DNA from: Escherichia coli
Lineage (GTDB): Bacteria; Pseudomonadota; Gammaproteobacteria; Enterobacterales; Enterobacteriaceae
Strand: one strand, 5' to 3'
DNA length: 64,000 nt
NCBI RefSeq assembly: GCF_013122565.1
Contig: NZ_CP053258.1
Shown: in pieces, positions 27,208-58,084 of the stretch
Layout of the letters: every line of letters begins with the position of its first letter
Position numbering within the stretch: the first letter of the stretch is position 1
Program-made: the position numbers and the translations under genes
Notes under the pieces: generated by a model
What the model saw: only the letters and a program-made list of their open reading frames with translations
Databases searched by the model: none
Told to the model about the DNA's origin: nothing

Positions 27208-28416
27208 ATGACCGTAAATTCTTCACGTAATGCATTGAAACGCCGAACCTGGGCGCTGTTTATGTTCTTCTTTTTGCCAGGCCTGTTAATGGCGTCCTGG
27301 GCAACCCGTACGCCTGCTATCCGCGATATTCTCTCTGTCTCGATCGCTGAAATGGGCGGTGTTCTCTTTGGTCTGTCGATCGGTTCGATGAGCGGTATTC
27401 TCTGCTCGGCGTGGTTAGTGAAACGCTTTGGGACACGTAATGTCATCCTGGTCACGATGTCCTGCGCATTGATCGGGATGATGATATTAAGTCTGGCACT
27501 CTGGCTGACATCGCCCCTGCTCTTCGCGGTTGGTCTCGGTGTCTTTGGGGCAAGTTTTGGTTCTGCGGAAGTGGCGATAAACGTTGAAGGTGCCGCCGTT
27601 GAGCGAGAAATGAATAAAACGGTTTTGCCGATGATGCACGGTTTTTATAGCCTGGGCACGCTGGCAGGCGCTGGTGTCGGGATGGCACTGACGGCCTTTG
27701 GCGTTCCGGCAACGGTGCACATTTTATTGGCGGCGCTGGTGGGCATCGCGCCTATTTATATCGCCATTCAGGCAATCCCTGACGGTACGGGCAAAAATGC
27801 TGCCGATGGCACCCAGCATGGCGAAAAAGGCGTACCTTTTTATCGCGATATCCAGTTGCTGTTGATTGGTGTTGTAGTGCTGGCGATGGCCTTTGCCGAA
27901 GGTTCTGCCAACGACTGGTTACCCTTATTAATGGTTGACGGTCACGGTTTTAGCCCTACTTCCGGCTCGCTGATTTATGCCGGTTTTACCCTGGGGATGA
28001 CCGTTGGACGCTTCACCGGCGGTTGGTTCATCGACCGTTACAGTCGCGTTGCCGTGGTTCGTGCCAGTGCACTAATGGGGGCGTTGGGTATTGGGCTGAT
28101 TATTTTTGTCGATAGCGCCTGGGTCGCTGGGGTGTCTGTTGTACTCTGGGGACTGGGTGCCTCGCTGGGCTTCCCGCTGACCATTTCTGCCGCCAGCGAT
28201 ACCGGCCCCGATGCACCAACCCGCGTCAGTGTGGTAGCAACGACCGGTTATCTGGCTTTCCTCGTCGGGCCGCCGCTGCTGGGCTATCTCGGCGAACATT
28301 ATGGATTACGTAGTGCAATGCTGGTTGTACTGGCGCTGGTTATTCTCGCGGCTATTGTCGCGAAAGCCGTCGCCAAACCCGATACCAAAACGCAAACGGC
28401 GATGGAGAATAGTTGA
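27208..28416 (+). CDS. ybjJ: MFS transporter YbjJ
   Basis: 402 aa polytopic membrane protein; K-12 synteny. Confidence 0.9.
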
Positions 28417-29231
28417 TGAGCATTAAATTAATTGCGGTAGACATGGATGGTACTTTCTTAAGCGATCAAAAAACCTATAACCGTGAGCGGTTTATGGCTC
28501 AGTATCAGCAAATGAAAGCACAAGGCATTCGCTTTGTGGTCGCCAGCGGGAATCAATATTATCAGTTGATCTCTTTCTTCCCTGAAATTGCTAATGAAAT
28601 TGCCTTTGTGGCTGAAAACGGCGGCTGGGTAGTGAGCGAAGGCAAAGATGTTTTTAATGGCGAGCTGTCGAAGGATGCGTTTGCTACTGTCGTGGAACAT
28701 TTGCTGACGCGCCCGGAAGTGGAAATTATTGCCTGCGGAAAAAATAGCGCCTATACACTCAAAAAATATGACGATGCCATGAAAACGGTGGCGGAAATGT
28801 ATTATCACCGTCTGGAATACGTCGATAACTTTGACAACTTAGAAGATATCTTCTTTAAGTTTGGCCTGAATCTTTCCGATGAACTGATTCCACAAATACA
28901 AAAAGCATTACATGAGGCCATCGGCGATATTATGGTGCCGGTCCACACCGGCAACGGCAGCATCGATCTGATTATCCCCGGCGTACATAAAGCCAATGGC
29001 CTTCGCCAACTGCAGAAATTATGGGGAATAGACGACAGCGAAGTAGTGGTCTTTGGCGATGGCGGTAACGATATTGAGATGCTGCGTCAGGCAGGCTTTA
29101 GTTTTGCTATGGAAAATGCCGGCAGCGCGGTCGTCGCAGCTGCAAAATACCGGGCAGGCTCCAATAACCGTGAAGGCGTACTGGATGTGATCGATAAAGT
29201 GCTTAAACACGAAGCGCCATTTAACCAATAA
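28416..29231 (+). CDS. ybjI: HAD-family (Cof-like) phosphatase YbjI
   Basis: [15 protein letters not shown]... (DxDGT motif); ATGA overlap with ybjJ. Confidence 0.9.
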   Translation: MSIKLIAVDMDGTFLSDQKTYNRERFMAQYQQMKAQGIRFVVASGNQYYQLISFFPEIANEIAFVAENGGWVVSEGKDVFNGELSKDAFATVVEHLLTRPEVEIIACGKNSAYTLKKYDDAMKTVAEMYYHRLEYVDNFDNLEDIFFKFGLNLSDELIPQIQKALHEAIGDIMVPVHTGNGSIDLIIPGVHKANGLRQLQKLWGIDDSEVVVFGDGGNDIEMLRQAGFSFAMENAGSAVVAAAKYRAGSNNREGVLDVIDKVLKHEAPFNQ

Positions 29232-37835: not shown

Positions 37836-38019
37836 TTAATCTAAAGGCAGATCTAACAAGGATATTGTTCTTCGATCTGCCTCTACTACCCTTCCCGATG
37901 TCCTACCCTTACGCACAAAATCCCCTGACGCATAAATCGAGAAAAATGAATCGTACTCGAGGCAACTCTCACTTTTTCACACCAAATTAAAGTTTTGATC
38001 GCAATTACTTGAAATAAGC

Positions 38020-38045
38020 GTAATGGTTACTATAGTAAACATTAC
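38020..38045. promoter_or_regulatory. Imperfect palindrome overlapping a -10-like TATAGT upstream of the toxin-antitoxin pair (autoregulatory operator candidate)
   Basis: gtaatggttactatagtaaacattac. Confidence 0.4.
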
Positions 38046-38060
38046 CACAAGGATGGATGT

Positions 38061-38447
38061 ATGGGTGTGTATAAGGCAAGGCGATTCAGCCAAAGCACGA
38101 AAAAACTTGGTATTCACGATAAAGTTCTCATGGCTGCCGCTGAAGAAGTGATGCAAGGCATATGGGAGGCTGATTTAGGTAGCGGTGTCATCAAAAAACG
38201 GTTACCCCTCCAACAAGGAAAGAGTGGTGGAGCCAGAACAATTATCTTTTTTAAATCAGCAAATCATGTGTTTTTTTATGATGGTTGGTCCAAGAGTGGT
38301 CTAAGCAGTAAAGGAACCAAAGAAATCGAAGATGATGAACTGGCAGCCTACAAAAAAATGGCAAATGCATTTCTGGCCTTTAGCAATAAGCAAATAGAGG
38401 ATTTGATCGAAACTGGCTTCTTGATTGAGGTGAAAAATGAGCGATAA
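38061..38447 (+). CDS. Type II toxin, RelE/ParE superfamily (HigB-2-like), toxin-first arrangement
   Basis: 128 aa; ...GKSGGARTIIFFKSANHVFFYDGWSKS... pattern typical of this toxin family. Confidence 0.65.
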   Translation: MGVYKARRFSQSTKKLGIHDKVLMAAAEEVMQGIWEADLGSGVIKKRLPLQQGKSGGARTIIFFKSANHVFFYDGWSKSGLSSKGTKEIEDDELAAYKKMANAFLAFSNKQIEDLIETGFLIEVKNER

Positions 38448-38766
38448 ATTACAAATGATGCTGGAAGATGCAAAGGAACTGAATGCATTGGGCCTGATGT
38501 CTGATAGTGAGGTTGATGCCATTGCCGTCATGGTCAAAGCCCGTGAAGTCAGCGCCCGTATAGCCAAAGTCAAATCAATGACGGGTGAAGAGATCAAAGC
38601 CATCCGCACCCGATACGGCATGTCACAATCCGTGCTGGCACATACAATGGGAATGTCAAAAGAAAGTGTCTCGAAATGGGAACGTAATGAAATAAAACCG
38701 AGCGGCCCGGCACTACGTATTTTGAATACATTGGCAATAAAAGGGCCGGAAGTTTTTGCAAAGTAA
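38437..38766 (+). CDS. HTH (Xre/NadS-like) antitoxin
   Basis: 109 aa; C-terminal HTH ...YGMSQSVLAHTMGMSKESVSKWERNE...; 11-bp overlap with toxin gene. Confidence 0.65.
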   Translation: MSDKLQMMLEDAKELNALGLMSDSEVDAIAVMVKAREVSARIAKVKSMTGEEIKAIRTRYGMSQSVLAHTMGMSKESVSKWERNEIKPSGPALRILNTLAIKGPEVFAK

Positions 38767-38835
38767 AATGTTTGCAAATGATTTACCACATTCATTAGTA
38801 CCCCTTGATTCAGGGGTACTAACACTATTCTAATT

Positions 38836-40164
38836 CTACTGCCAGCTAATCTGCGCCCTGCCGTTTTTCTTACTCTTATACAGCCGCTCATCTGCCAGCA
38901 TTTTCAAGCGTTCGACGGTAGTACATTCATTTGAATGCGCTATACCGATACTGGTGCTTAAATTAATGCTTCCCACCTGGAAATGAACAATTTCTTTTAG
39001 AATCGATAGCAACTCTTCCAGCGTTCCACCCGTATAAATCACCGCAAATTCGTCACCGCCGAAGCGGTAGACTTTACCTTTATCTACGGGGATCTGTGAT
39101 TTAAGGATTTTCACCACTTTCATCAACACTTCATCGCCCAGCAAATGACCGAAGGTGTCGTTAATGTTTTTGAATTTATCGACGTCAAACAGGCACAAAT
39201 ATCCGCCTTTTTCCGGCAGGGCTTTTAAATCTTCGTCAAAGGATTTTCTGCCCATTGCTTTGGTCAGGTCGTCCAGGAACGCTGAGTTATACAGACTGTA
39301 GAGTTTTTTGACATCGGCAGCCGAAAAGAAAAGCCCGCCATCCAGTACACGTTCAAAATGGTTATTAATGATGGCTTCTTTCTCCACAATACCACGATTA
39401 ATCACTCTGCGTACCATATAGAGGCAACTGGTACCCGATATCACTGCCACCAATGCGGCAAAGAAAATAATCAATGTACAGACCCGCAAATAAACATCTT
39501 TTTTATACGCAAATACGTACAATCCTGTCGGCAAATAGGCGAAGTGCTCCATCGCTTCCGAAACGGTGAAGATGGCGTTTTTAGCATTATATTCATCACC
39601 GGTCACCGGTTTACCGTTCTTAAACAGAGAGAACATCAGGTTTTCGCTATCCATCGCCAGCGATTTTGACAGTAAAGAAAAACGCTCCAGACCAAGCAAA
39701 AATATCAGACTACGATTGTGAGTTACCGGATAGAGGTAATAGACGAAGGTTTTACCGTCAAAAGAGATAAACCCTGTATTTTTGACATGTCGATACTTCA
39801 CAACCTGCATAATATCTGCACAATAATTTTTCTCGAACTCCTTTACCTGAATACATTCGTCACTGGAAATCAGATAAGGACCGACATCGTACAAATAAGA
39901 GGGTGAAACCGAGTCGGCGTAAGCTGTGCGTAAGCCAACCAACAGCTGTTCCTCCGTGGGATTTAGCGTGTTGATAAGATCAATTGCCACGCTACGCCGA
40001 TATTCAGCAATATTTGCCACCGCAAAAGCAGTATCAATAACGGACTGTTTCAGGCTATACACCCGTTCCTTTACCATTTGAGTGTAGATCCCGCAGGCAA
40101 CTGCTGAAATCATGATAAAAATCAGCAGACTGACTGTAAGTACGAACTTATTGATTCTGGACAT
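38836..40164 (-). CDS. dgcI: Diguanylate cyclase DgcI (YliF)
   Basis: 442 aa; GGDEF motif in ...[12 protein letters not shown]... Confidence 0.9.
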
Positions 40165-52904: not shown

Positions 52905-55337
52905 ATGACCACACTGAAACTGGACACGCTCAGCGACCGCATTAAAGCGCACAAAAATGCGCTGGTGCATATTGTGAAACCGCCGGTTTGTACCGAGCGC
53001 GCGCAGCACTATACCGAGATGTATCAACAACATCTCGATAAGCCGATCCCGGTACGTCGCGCGCTGGCGCTGGCACATCACCTGGCGAATCGCACCATCT
53101 GGATCAAGCACGATGAGTTGATCATCGGCAACCAGGCAAGCGAGGTTCGCGCCGCGCCGATCTTCCCGGAATATACCGTCTCGTGGATCGAAAAAGAGAT
53201 TGATGATCTGGCAGATCGTCCCGGTGCTGGTTTTGCGGTGAGCGAAGAGAACAAACGCGTTCTGCATGAAGTGTGCCCGTGGTGGCGCGGTCAGACCGTA
53301 CAGGATCGCTGCTACGGCATGTTTACCGATGAGCAAAAAGGTCTGCTGGCGACCGGAATCATTAAAGCGGAAGGCAATATGACCTCCGGCGATGCGCACC
53401 TGGCGGTGAATTTCCCGCTGCTGCTGGAAAAAGGTCTTGATGGTCTGCGCGAGAAAGTAGCGGAACGTCGCTCGCGCATCAATCTGACGGTGCTGGAAGA
53501 TTTGCACGGCGAACAATTCCTGAAAGCGATTGATATCGTGCTGGTGGCAGTCAGTGAACACATTGAACGTTTCGCTGCCCTGGCGCGTGAAATGGCCGCG
53601 ACCGAAACTCGCGAAAACCGTCGCGATGAACTGCTGGCGATAGCAGAAAACTGCGATCTTATCGCCCACCAGCCGCCGCGGACTTTCTGGCAGGCGCTGC
53701 AACTGTGTTACTTCATCCAGTTGATTTTGCAGATCGAATCCAACGGTCACTCGGTATCGTTTGGTCGTATGGACCAGTATCTGTACCCGTATTATCGTCG
53801 CGACGTTGAACTCAACCAGACGCTGGATCGCGAACACGCCATCGAGATGCTGCATAGCTGCTGGCTGAAACTGCTGGAAGTGAACAAGATCCGCTCCGGC
53901 TCGCACTCAAAAGCCTCTGCGGGTAGTCCGCTGTATCAGAACGTCACCATTGGCGGGCAAAATCTGGTTGATGGTCAACCAATGGACGCGGTGAATCCAC
54001 TCTCTTACGCGATCCTCGAATCCTGCGGTCGCCTGCGTTCCACTCAGCCTAACCTCAGCGTGCGTTACCACGCGGGAATGAGCAACGATTTCCTCGACGC
54101 CTGCGTACAGGTGATCCGCTGCGGCTTCGGGATGCCGGCGTTCAACAACGACGAAATCGTCATCCCGGAATTTATTAAACTCGGTATTGAACCGCAGGAC
54201 GCTTACGACTATGCAGCAATTGGCTGTATAGAAACCGCCGTCGGTGGCAAATGGGGCTATCGCTGTACCGGCATGAGCTTTATCAACTTCGCCCGTGTGA
54301 TGCTGGCGGCGCTGGAAGGTGGTCGAGACGCCACCAGCGGCAAAGTGTTCCTGCCACAAGAAAAAGCGTTGTCAGCGGGTAACTTTAACAATTTCGATGA
54401 AGTAATGGACGCGTGGGATACGCAAATCCGTTACTACACCCGCAAATCAATCGAAATCGAATATGTCGTCGACACCATGCTGGAAGAGAACGTGCACGAT
54501 ATTCTCTGCTCGGCGCTGGTGGATGACTGTATTGAGCGAGCAAAAAGTATCAAGCAAGGCGGCGCGAAATATGACTGGGTTTCTGGCCTGCAGGTCGGCA
54601 TTGCCAACCTCGGCAACAGCCTGGCTGCAGTGAAGAAACTGGTGTTTGAACAGGGCGCGATTGGTCAGCAACAGCTGGCTGCCGCACTGGCGGATGACTT
54701 CGACGGCCTGACGCACGAGCAGCTGCGTCAGCGGCTGATTAACGGTGCGCCGAAGTACGGCAACGACGATGATACTGTCGATACGCTGCTGGCTCGCGCT
54801 TATCAGACCTATATCGACGAACTGAAGCAGTACCATAACCCGCGCTACGGACGTGGTCCGGTTGGCGGCAACTATTACGCGGGTACGTCGTCTATCTCCG
54901 CTAACGTACCGTTTGGCGCGCAAACTATGGCAACGCCAGACGGACGTAAAGCCCACACCCCGCTGGCAGAAGGCGCAAGCCCGGCCTCCGGTACTGACCA
55001 TCTTGGCCCTACTGCGGTCATTGGCTCGGTGGGTAAACTGCCTACGGCAGCGATCCTCGGCGGCGTGTTGCTCAACCAGAAACTGAATCCGGCAACGCTG
55101 GAGAACGAATCTGACAAGCAGAAACTGATGATCCTGCTGCGTACCTTCTTTGAAGTGCATAAAGGCTGGCATATTCAGTACAACATCGTTTCCCGCGAAA
55201 CGCTGCTGGAAGCGAAAAAACATCCGGATCAGTACCGCGATCTGGTAGTGCGCGTCGCGGGCTATTCCGCCTTCTTCACCGCGCTCTCTCCAGACGCACA
55301 GGACGATATCATCGCCCGTACCGAACATATGCTGTAA
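52905..55337 (+). CDS. pflF: Glycyl-radical enzyme (pyruvate formate-lyase-like) PflF (YbiW)
   Basis: 810 aa; C-terminal glycyl radical motif region ...RVAGYSAFF... Confidence 0.9.
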   Translation: MTTLKLDTLSDRIKAHKNALVHIVKPPVCTERAQHYTEMYQQHLDKPIPVRRALALAHHLANRTIWIKHDELIIGNQASEVRAAPIFPEYTVSWIEKEIDDLADRPGAGFAVSEENKRVLHEVCPWWRGQTVQDRCYGMFTDEQKGLLATGIIKAEGNMTSGDAHLAVNFPLLLEKGLDGLREKVAERRSRINLTVLEDLHGEQFLKAIDIVLVAVSEHIERFAALAREMAATETRENRRDELLAIAENCDLIAHQPPRTFWQALQLCYFIQLILQIESNGHSVSFGRMDQYLYPYYRRDVELNQTLDREHAIEMLHSCWLKLLEVNKIRSGSHSKASAGSPLYQNVTIGGQNLVDGQPMDAVNPLSYAILESCGRLRSTQPNLSVRYHAGMSNDFLDACVQVIRCGFGMPAFNNDEIVIPEFIKLGIEPQDAYDYAAIGCIETAVGGKWGYRCTGMSFINFARVMLAALEGGRDATSGKVFLPQEKALSAGNFNNFDEVMDAWDTQIRYYTRKSIEIEYVVDTMLEENVHDILCSALVDDCIERAKSIKQGGAKYDWVSGLQVGIANLGNSLAAVKKLVFEQGAIGQQQLAAALADDFDGLTHEQLRQRLINGAPKYGNDDDTVDTLLARAYQTYIDELKQYHNPRYGRGPVGGNYYAGTSSISANVPFGAQTMATPDGRKAHTPLAEGASPASGTDHLGPTAVIGSVGKLPTAAILGGVLLNQKLNPATLENESDKQKLMILLRTFFEVHKGWHIQYNIVSRETLLEAKKHPDQYRDLVVRVAGYSAFFTALSPDAQDDIIARTEHML

Positions 55338-55476
55338 TCTCCTCAGCCCGGTAACGGTTGTTGCCGGGCGAAAATACTCATCCCATCGATATTATTTTAA
55401 TCCGAAATAAATTTGTGCTCCGCGTCCCATTGTCATTACACTGTGGCGGTTTGCATTCATTGTCAGGAGCACATCT

Positions 55477-56292
55477 ATGAGCGTAAAAGTTATCGTCACA
55501 GACATGGACGGTACTTTTCTGAGCGACGCCAAAACGTACAACAATGAGCGTTTTATGGTGCAATATCAGGAACTTAAAAAGCGCGGCATTGAGTTCGTTG
55601 TCGCCAGCGGTAATCAGTATTACCAGCTTATTTCGTTCTTTCCTGAGCTAAAGGATGAGATCTCTTTTGTCGCGGAAAACGGCGCACTGGTTTACGAAAA
55701 TGGCATGCAGTTGTTCCACGGCGAATTAACCCGACATGAATCGCGGATTGTTATTGGCGAGTTGCTGAAAGACAAGCAACTCAATTTTGTCGCCTGCGGT
55801 TTGCAAAGCGCGTATGTCAGCGAAAATGCCCCCGAAGCATTCGTCGCACTGATGGCAAAACACTACCATCGCCTGAAACCTGTAAAAGATTATCAGGAGA
55901 TTGACGACGTACTGTTCAAGTTTTCGCTCAACCTGCCGGATGAACAAATCCCGTTAGTGATCGACAAACTGCACGTAGCGCTCGATGGCATTATGAAACC
56001 CGTCACCAGTGGTTTTGGCTTTATCGACCTGATTATTCCCGGTCTACATAAAGCGAATGGTATTACGCGGTTGCTGAAACGCTGGGATCTGTCACCGCAA
56101 AATGTGGTAGCGGTTGGCGACAGCGGTAACGATGCGGAGATGCTGAAAATGGCGCGTTATTCCTTTGCGATGGGCAATGCTGCGGAAAACATTAAACAAA
56201 TCGCCCGTTACGCTACCGATGATAATAATCATGAAGGCGCGCTGAATGTGATTCAGGCGGTGCTGGATAATAAAGCGCCGTTTACTCTTTAA
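55477..56292 (+). CDS. ybiV: HAD-family sugar phosphatase YbiV (SupH)
   Basis: 271 aa; [15 protein letters not shown] (DxDGT). Confidence 0.9.
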
Positions 56293-56333
56293 TAATTGCC
56301 GATTCATTTTATTGAGAAAGTGCGCGTCGTCAT

Positions 56334-56431
56334 GCCGGATGCGGCGTGACCGCCTTATCCAGCCTACAAAATCATGCAAATTCAACATATTGCGATACGC
56401 TGCCAGGTCTGATAAGCGTAGCGCATCAGGC
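56334..56431. repeat. REP/BIME element (two REP units in opposite orientation) plus adjacent hairpin at 56456-56482
   Basis: gccggatgcggcgtgaccgccttatccagcctac and ggtctgataagcgtagcgcatcaggc match the E. coli REP consensus. Confidence 0.8.
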
Positions 56432-56491
56432 AATTTTGCATTTGTCATCAGTCTCAGTAGCCCTGACATTATCAGGGCTACTGGTAATAAC

Positions 56492-58084
56492 TTACTCGAT
56501 CCCTTTACTACGCAGGTAATCTTCGTAATTACCGCTAAAGTCGATCACGCGTTCCGGGGTGATTTCCAGAATACGGGTCGCCAGGGAGCTTACAAACTCA
56601 CGGTCGTGAGAAACAAAGATCAGCGTGCCCTGATACAGTTCCAGTGCCATGTTCAGCGACTCGATGGATTCCATATCCAGATGGTTGGTCGGTTCGTCCA
56701 TGATCAGAATGTTTGGCTTCTGCATCATTAACTTACCAAACAGCATCCGCCCTTTTTCCCCACCGGAAAGCACTTTAGCTGGCTTTTTGATGTCGTCCTG
56801 GCTGAACAGCAAACGACCGAGAATGCTGCGTACCGCCTGCTCGTCATCGCCTTCCTGCTTCCACTGACTCATCCATTCGAACACGGTCAGATCATTTTCG
56901 AACTCATATTCGTGGTCCTGAGCGTAGTAACCAATGCGCGCATTTTCAGACCATTTTACGGTGCCGCTCTCCGGTTGCAGATCGCCCACCAGCGTTTTCA
57001 GCAGCGTTGATTTACCGACGCCGTTGGTACCCAGTACCGCCAGTTTTTCACCGACTTCCAGCAGCAGGTTGAGATTTTTAAACAGCGGACCGTTATCAAA
57101 CCCTTTGGTCAGACCTTCCACTTCCAGCGCGTTACGGAACAGTTTCTTATCCTGTTCAAAACGGATGAACGGGTTCTGACGGCTGGAGGCTTTCACCTCT
57201 TCCAGTTTGATTTTATCAATCTGGCGCGCGCGCGAAGTTGCCTGGCGAGATTTCGAGGCGTTGGCGCTAAAGCGGCTAACGAAAGATTGCAGCTCAGCAA
57301 TCTGCGCTTTCTTCTTGGCGTTATCAGCCAGCAGACGTTCACGCGCCTGGGTCGCCGCCGTCATGTACTCATCGTAGTTGCCCGGATAAACGCGCAGCTC
57401 ACCGTAATCCAGATCCGCCATGTGGGTACAAACCATGTTAAGGAAGTGACGGTCGTGCGAGATGATGATCATGGTGCTGTCACGCTCGTTCAGCACCTGT
57501 TCCAGCCAGCGAATGGTGTCGATGTCGAGGTTGTTGGTCGGTTCGTCGAGCAGGAGAATGTCTGGATCAGCAAACAGCGCCTGCGCCAGCAGCACACGAA
57601 GCTTCCAGCCAGGAGCAACTTCACTCATCGGGCCGAAGTGCTGTTCCACTGGAATTCCCACGCCAAGCAACAGTTCACCGGCGCGAGCTTCCGCAGAGTA
57701 ACCGTCCATTTCGCCGTATTTCACTTCCAGATCGGCCACTTTATAGCCGTCTTCTTCACTCATTTCCGGCAAAGCATAGATGCGGTCACGCTCCTGCTTC
57801 ACTTCCCACAACTCTTTATGCCCCATGATCACCGTATCCAGCACAGTGAACTCTTCAAAGGCAAACTGATCCTGACGCAGCTTACCAATGCGCTCGTTGG
57901 GATCGAGGGAAACGTTACCCAACGTCGGCTCTAAGTCGCCGCCGAGGATCTTCATAAAGGTGGATTTACCACTACCGTTCGCGCCAATCAGGCCGTAACG
58001 GTTGCCGCCGCCAAATTTGACGGAAATGTTTTCAAACAACGGCTTACTGCCGAACTGCATGGTGACGTTACTGGAAACTAACAC
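56492..58084 (-). CDS. ybiT: ABC-F family ATPase YbiT
   Basis: 530 aa; two ABC domains ([20 protein letters not shown]). Confidence 0.95.

Follow-up and report, generated by a model that had tools for sequence, protein, structure and literature searches.

The BIME-1 class of elements (also called RIB or RIP) is defined by a z1 and a y REP joined by a long conserved linker, which often carries an IHF site, with a single copy per locus (PMC3333891). REPs are also known from rearrangements. F'128 amplification and lambda bio junctions are cited examples of REP-REP recombination events, in which a REP element adjoins the rearranged segment (PMC1525189), and IS621 has REP target specificity (PMC1525189). 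A further point of comparison is the E. coli accessory-gene hotspot, at which conserved flanks bracket alternative contents in conspecific genomes. In this study, we analyzed the interval between ybiV and ybiT in a 64-kb stretch of E. coli DNA (the window), where ybiU is absent and a REP-linker-REP element is found.

In MG1655 and in one K-12-lineage genome, the gene order is ybiT-ybiU-ybiV, with an intervening ybiU of 1,266 bp that encodes 421 amino acids; the K-12 order on which a sequence-only reading of this DNA had relied was thus correct. The interval between ybiV and ybiT in the window (positions 56293 to 56491) comprises only 199 bp according to the open reading frame (ORF) listing and the sequence, confirming that ybiU is missing at this position, and the description of the roughly 200-bp gap as two inverted REP units plus a hairpin was likewise borne out, since both REPs and a 12-bp hairpin were located. 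A tblastn search of the whole 64-kb window with K-12 YbiU (E ≤ 1e-3) found no homologue, so that the refuting condition named in that reading, ybiU elsewhere in the genome, was negative over these 64 kb. The window's YbiV shows 98% amino acid identity to YbiV of PT62 and 96% to that of K-12, and its YbiT is 99 to 100% identical to E. coli YbiT. The only extra match, at 28416 to 29222, is a YbiV paralogue with 52% identity, which aligns with the PT62 gene annotated ybjI. The features of the locus are as follows.

55477-56292, plus strand: ybiV, sugar phosphatase of 271 amino acids (ORF listing; name as annotated in matching RefSeq genomes)
56271-56292, plus strand: allele-specific ybiV tail, NKAPFTL* (last seven codons and stop), recognized by a drop in BLAST identity
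56293-56303: probable deletion junction, about 11 nt without demonstrable homology to ybiU-bearing alleles
56304-56333: spacer that shares homology, in anchored alignment versus shuffles, with the 30 nt on the left side of the BIME of ybiU-bearing alleles
56334-56367, plus strand: REP of the y type, two mismatches to the consensus GCCGGATGCGGCGTGAACGCCTTATCCGGCCTAC
56368-56404: BIME linker of 37 nt with an IHF-like site, ATTCAACATATTG
56405-56431, minus strand: REP of the z type, inverted relative to the y REP, one mismatch to GCCTGATGCGCTACGCTTATCAGGCCT; an inverted-repeat search pairs both REPs
56455-56483, minus strand: stem-loop with a 12-bp stem and a 5-nt loop, no U-tract (inverted-repeat search)
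56492-58084, minus strand: ybiT, ABC-F ATPase of 530 amino acids (ORF listing)

Some observations concern the surroundings of the locus. Among complete E. coli genomes, the best match to the window shows 98.6% identity over 24 kb, and none of the species-representative genomes yielded a YbiV match of 100%. Divergence is unusually high at positions 55250 to 55750, which span the intergenic region of ybiW and ybiV together with the beginning of ybiV: the first 250-nt bin shows 86 to 88% identity to K-12 and ST131, and neighboring bins mostly 94 to 99%. This suggests a second recombinant or divergent block close to the ybiU indel. A prophage of the P2 family occupies positions 1 to 26558, as seen from its genes for capsid, tail, terminase, and a replication endonuclease, and has no counterpart at this place in PT62; related P2-like prophages carry variable accessory modules. 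Compared with PT62, the window has an additional segment of about 1 kb between rimO and dgcI (37841 to 38836), and the two overlapping ORFs of this segment (38061 to 38447 and 38437 to 38766) are predicted to encode a RelE-family toxin (PF06296) and an HTH_3/MqsA-like antitoxin.

The REPs were identified by matching to y and z consensus sequences; neither consensus was matched in 100 shuffles. For the z unit, a generic z consensus was used. In the linker, a candidate IHF site was recognized by eye, with one mismatch to the consensus WATCAANNNNTTR. The 108-bp REP-linker-REP unit is present at at least 33 places per genome in 5,425 of 5,426 E. coli genomes, and full-length copies including the linker occur at other genomic loci with 87 to 90% identity; the ybiV-ybiT gap itself contains one such unit only. 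Like BIME-1, the gap element combines inverted y and z REPs with a long conserved linker and an IHF-like site, stands singly at its locus, is intergenic at transcription-unit 3' ends, and is highly repeated per genome. Judged from its sequence, it fits a BIME-1-type element by the published definition, and nothing about it is unusual in comparison.

Between the BIME and ybiT, the hairpin starts 8 nt past the ybiT stop codon on the ybiT strand. Its arms (56455 to 56466 and 56472 to 56483) are 100% complementary over 12 bp, and the predicted RNA fold of the stem-loop has a free energy of -27.5 kcal/mol. No intrinsic terminator was called in a consensus scan of the gap, the hairpin having no U-tract. 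A strong hairpin is found at the equivalent position in every allele class and in Citrobacter with differing stem sequences, which is consistent with compensatory change, and the hairpin is probably a conserved ybiT 3' structure.

We classified the interval in 5,426 complete E. coli genomes by BLAST coverage thresholds, under which about 80 to 90 genomes fall in no class. The following states were counted.

K-12-type ybiU, at least 90% nucleotide identity: about 4,086 of 5,426 genomes
Divergent "type-2" ybiU, 75 to 77% nucleotide identity, at the same position: 159 of 5,426 genomes
Empty junction (spanning the ybiV end and the spacer, at least 80% coverage): 1,053 of 5,426 genomes
The window's own empty version, 100% identical over 75 nt: 11 of the 1,053 empty genomes
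DUF6960 cassette replacing ybiU, BIME, and hairpin: 36 to 41 E. coli genomes

About 4,245 ybiU-bearing genomes are thus observed alongside 1,053 empty ones, in agreement with the presence/absence polymorphism that the sequence-only reading had considered. Its term "strain-specific" does not hold, as the empty junction recurs in about a fifth of the species and in E. albertii, whose type strain (one E. albertii genome) has an identical architecture. The remaining approximately 1,040 empty genomes carry a version about 93% identical to that of the window in the junction; among them are ST131, an APEC O1:K1:H7 strain, and a Nissle-type strain, all of which belong to phylogroup B2.

In total, the interval shows at least seven states between the same ybiV and ybiT flanks. 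The DUF6960 cassette (L004:3892-4923) contains a pseudogene fragment and genes for a 93-amino-acid hypothetical protein and a 129-amino-acid DUF6960 protein, is AT rich by eye, and occurs in ATCC 8739 among E. coli and also in E. whittamii (L040). In some genomes, a DUF4261 gene at another location also matches the first 150 nt of the cassette. Cassette alleles have neither the BIME nor the ybiT hairpin, and their ybiV tail is that of the empty alleles. Further states are ybiU with IS621 within the BIME, ybiU with a LacI/MFS/TIM-barrel island, and a gutted ybiU (HH97). The island, one for sugar utilization, was seen in Nord122 and similar genomes, where it separates ybiU from ybiT (L006:3737-8814) and encodes a TIM-barrel protein, an MFS transporter, and a regulator of the LacI family; the insert overlaps the ybiU 3' end and takes the place of the entire spacer, BIME, and hairpin.

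IS621 in HB-Coli0 (L005:7723-9001) sits exactly at the boundary of linker and z REP of the ybiT-adjacent BIME, in agreement with its published REP specificity (PMC1525189). In HH97, the same boundary is occupied by an insert that is unannotated and, at about 1.24 kb (L008:5144-6384), similar in size to IS621. The equivalent position in the window is 56404/56405, and IS621 is absent from the window. Since five of 30 genomes in an evenly spaced sample of matches break at this boundary, insertion there appears to be common. It is an event unrelated to the ybiU indel.

With conserved ybiV and ybiT flanks bracketing alternative contents in conspecific genomes, the interval resembles an E. coli accessory-gene hotspot. 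It differs in being small (0.2 to 6.7 kb), in having no tRNA or integrase, and in the position of its allele boundaries, which fall within the 3' portions of the adjoining genes (at codon 265 in ybiV and at the 3' end in ybiU); this speaks for homologous replacement and against site-specific integration.

To place the empty allele, species-representative genomes were scanned with the window's YbiV, which yielded 40 enterobacterial loci. We observed ybiU directly downstream of ybiV in seven genera (Citrobacter, Klebsiella, Raoultella, Enterobacter, Lelliottia, Pluralibacter, and Huaxiibacter); the next gene after ybiU is ybiT in Citrobacter species. This adjacency across outgroup genera argues for the presence of ybiU as the ancestral condition, and we infer from it that the empty state arose through loss of the gene. 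Salmonella enterica subsp. diarizonae (L025) has a rearranged locus: ybiU is on the opposite strand and precedes ybiV, REP-like palindromes come after ybiV, and ybiT does not occur within 6 kb.

The empty alleles of the window, PT62, ST131, and E. albertii are colinear, each with 221 nt from the ybiV tail to ybiT and no indels, which argues for a single origin. Identity among the three empty versions is only 86 to 89% over tail and gap, compared with 97 to 100% for the adjacent ybiT within E. coli, and this difference points to old age. The empty allele would accordingly have persisted across species while recombination homogenized its flanks, although gene conversion or rapid evolution of the BIME, and not age, may account for part of the high divergence seen in the gap. 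Loss or damage of ybiU is found in several further genomes: Escherichia sp. MOD1-EC7003 has a 5' deletion in the gene, its interior is replaced in HH97, and ybiV is directly adjacent to ybiT in bacterium UBA5654 and in Superficieibacter. Including the cassette replacement in E. coli and E. whittamii, ybiU is a dispensable gene that was lost or damaged independently several times. Its product is a Gig2-like/DUF1479 protein (PF07350), with the structures 2DBI and 2CSG deposited under uninformative names. Among the listed titles and abstracts of publications mentioning ybiU, none concerns its presence or absence or this locus.

We derived the breakpoints from BLAST coverage and register-anchored alignments. 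Identity to ybiU-bearing genomes is 100% up to positions 56270 to 56272 and then stops abruptly. These positions are not the deletion endpoint; they mark the beginning of the allele-specific ybiV tail: in all allele classes YbiV has 271 amino acids with the same Pro-Phe, and the last seven codons differ. The tail class of the window is shared only by other empty alleles and the DUF6960-cassette alleles, and the empty-allele tail agrees with either ybiU-bearing tail class at 12 to 16 of 24 nt. A microhomology noticed by eye at the deletion endpoints (GGATAA versus GGATTAA) was dismissed: the tail of ybiV has retained both its length and the conserved Pro-Phe, which identifies it as part of ybiV and not as DNA from beyond ybiU. 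In the short and diverged stretch that contains the junction, no microhomology is demonstrable.

On the other side of the gap, K-12-type alleles and the E. coli type-2 allele were likewise observed to have the BIME beside ybiT, with unchanged orientation and register, and Escherichia sp. E1V33 has a truncated copy next to ybiT. Being at the same place in ybiU-bearing alleles, the BIME is not a deletion scar. Unanchored local alignment of the 41-nt spacer with the K-12 spacer was not significant (102 to 298 of 2,000 shuffles reached the score). Anchored against the K-12 spacer, the 30 nt left of the y REP gave a score that was reached by one of 3,000 shuffles for the window, by 15 of 3,000 for the ST131 version, and by nine of 3,000 for the E. 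albertii version. When all 41 nt were included in the anchored test, significance was lost for the ST131 and E. albertii versions, and we therefore claim no homology for 56293 to 56303. The in-register homology over 30 nt places the junction at about 56293 to 56303 and thus 30 nt or more away from the REP. The five ybiU-bearing E. coli alleles inspected all have a hairpin and T-run terminator between ybiV and ybiU, and none has a REP there, so that REP-REP recombination would have had no left partner. As in the published REP-REP events, a REP element adjoins the rearranged segment; the difference is that the REPs of the window are not at the junction and that there is no second REP across the deleted segment.

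The ybiU genes themselves form two deeply divergent lineages. At the nucleotide level, K-12-type ybiU is 82 to 86% identical to ybiU of the Citrobacter freundii complex and only 75% identical to type-2 ybiU, which is present in some E. coli and two other Escherichia genomes. In distance (neighbor-joining [NJ]) trees of 21 sequences, K-12-type ybiU grouped with the C. freundii complex in 96% of bootstrap replicates (60% at codon positions 1 and 2), and Escherichia monophyly received 0%; the ybiV tree gave the expected Escherichia clade. Type-2 ybiU forms its own Escherichia clade, and two or more Escherichia genomes outside E. coli carry it at this site. The K-12 ybiV tail equals that of Citrobacter at 23 of 24 nt (by eye), with the preceding 36 nt being Escherichia-like. 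At the other end, K-12 ybiU resembles type 2 and differs from Citrobacter in its last approximately 40 nt, as does the spacer behind it. The putative mosaic is found at the following location.

L002:3874-5270 (K-12-lineage genome): K-12-type ybiU, putatively mosaic, no counterpart in the window

These patterns suggest that the common E. coli ybiU is a mosaic xenologue resulting from an old allelic replacement by Citrobacter-like DNA, with putative crossovers at ybiV codon 265 on the left and within the last approximately 40 nt of ybiU on the right. The type-2-like 3' end of ybiU in the K-12 allele further argues that the recipient had a resident ybiU rather than an empty site.

The reading that we favor as the likely one is that the window carries an old ybiU-loss allele of single origin at a multi-allelic hotspot, with the BIME as a bystander. 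The sequence-only reading had instead suggested an event mediated by REP sequences. By such a route, recombination between REP copies on both sides of ybiU, or a REP-associated transposase, would have removed ybiU and left the BIME as a scar. In keeping with such an excision, the BIME fills most of the residual gap, REPs are documented targets of recombination and insertion (PMC1525189), and the ybiT-adjacent BIME was hit by IS621 in other strains. Excision through the REPs is nevertheless highly improbable and already largely refuted: the BIME is intact, with the same orientation and register, in ybiU-bearing alleles, the 30 nt to its left are homologous between alleles so that the junction falls outside the REP, and a REP between ybiV and ybiU was found in zero of the five ybiU-bearing E. 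coli alleles inspected. Instead, we infer non-REP illegitimate recombination as the mechanism of the deletion.

Two further explanations concern the history of the alleles. If the empty state were ancestral for Escherichia, ybiU would have been gained by insertion, and the import of the majority ybiU, seen in the grouping of the K-12-type ybiU body with the C. freundii complex (96% bootstrap) and in the Citrobacter-like K-12-type ybiV tail, speaks for this. We regard a gain as unlikely, since the right crossover of the import lies inside the last approximately 40 nt of ybiU and thus replaced a resident gene, type-2 ybiU is a separate Escherichia clade at the same site, and the adjacency of ybiV and ybiU is family-wide. 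The empty allele could also be a secondary recombinant that received its ybiV tail from a DUF6960-cassette haplotype and its spacer, BIME, and hairpin from a ybiU-bearing one by illegitimate joining. The ybiV tail of the E. coli cassette allele indeed agrees with that of the window at all 24 nt, the nucleotides after the stop codon, AATTGCCGATTC, resemble by eye the 3' half of the cassette-allele terminator hairpin, CAATTGCCCCGATTTC, and the BIME is common to empty and K-12 alleles and absent from the cassette allele. The likeness to the cassette terminator spans only about 12 nt by eye, however, and insertion of the cassette into an empty-type allele accounts for the common tail equally well, which makes a recombinant of this kind very unlikely.

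According to the favored reading, loss of ybiU from a resident locus, the ancestral Escherichia order would have been ybiV, terminator, ybiU, spacer, BIME-1, hairpin, and ybiT. A deletion of about 1.46 kb would have taken out ybiU with its promoter, the terminator of ybiV, and some 50 nt of the downstream spacer, leaving the BIME and the ybiT 3' hairpin untouched. Vertical inheritance, together with homologous recombination in the conserved flanks, would then have kept the empty allele, which now occurs in E. albertii, in roughly one in five E. coli genomes, and as a rare third version, that of the window. With ybiV and ybiT now convergent, the BIME at their 3' ends would be a bystander, and the loss would belong to a series of independent events in which a dispensable gene disappeared or was replaced.

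The absence of ybiU is an ordinary accessory-gene polymorphism that is already visible in public annotations. Its analysis corrects two assumptions, namely, that the order of genes in K-12 can be taken as the default and that an event was REP mediated whenever the gap contains a REP, and it documents a small multi-allelic hotspot. The ybiU-less junction is usable as a marker to distinguish B2-type empty, rare window-type, and ybiU-bearing alleles. It is conceivable, if quite unlikely, that the ybiV-ybiT interval represents a long-lived trans-species balanced polymorphism in which the absence of YbiU is actively maintained. Absence would then be advantageous, for example, in B2/ExPEC-type and E. 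albertii lifestyles, with most other E. coli keeping the Citrobacter-derived replacement ybiU, and this would imply a niche-dependent function for a gene that is still listed as an uncharacterized member of the "y-ome." The Citrobacter-like mosaic ybiU provides an example of inter-genus allelic replacement and could inform studies of YbiU function.
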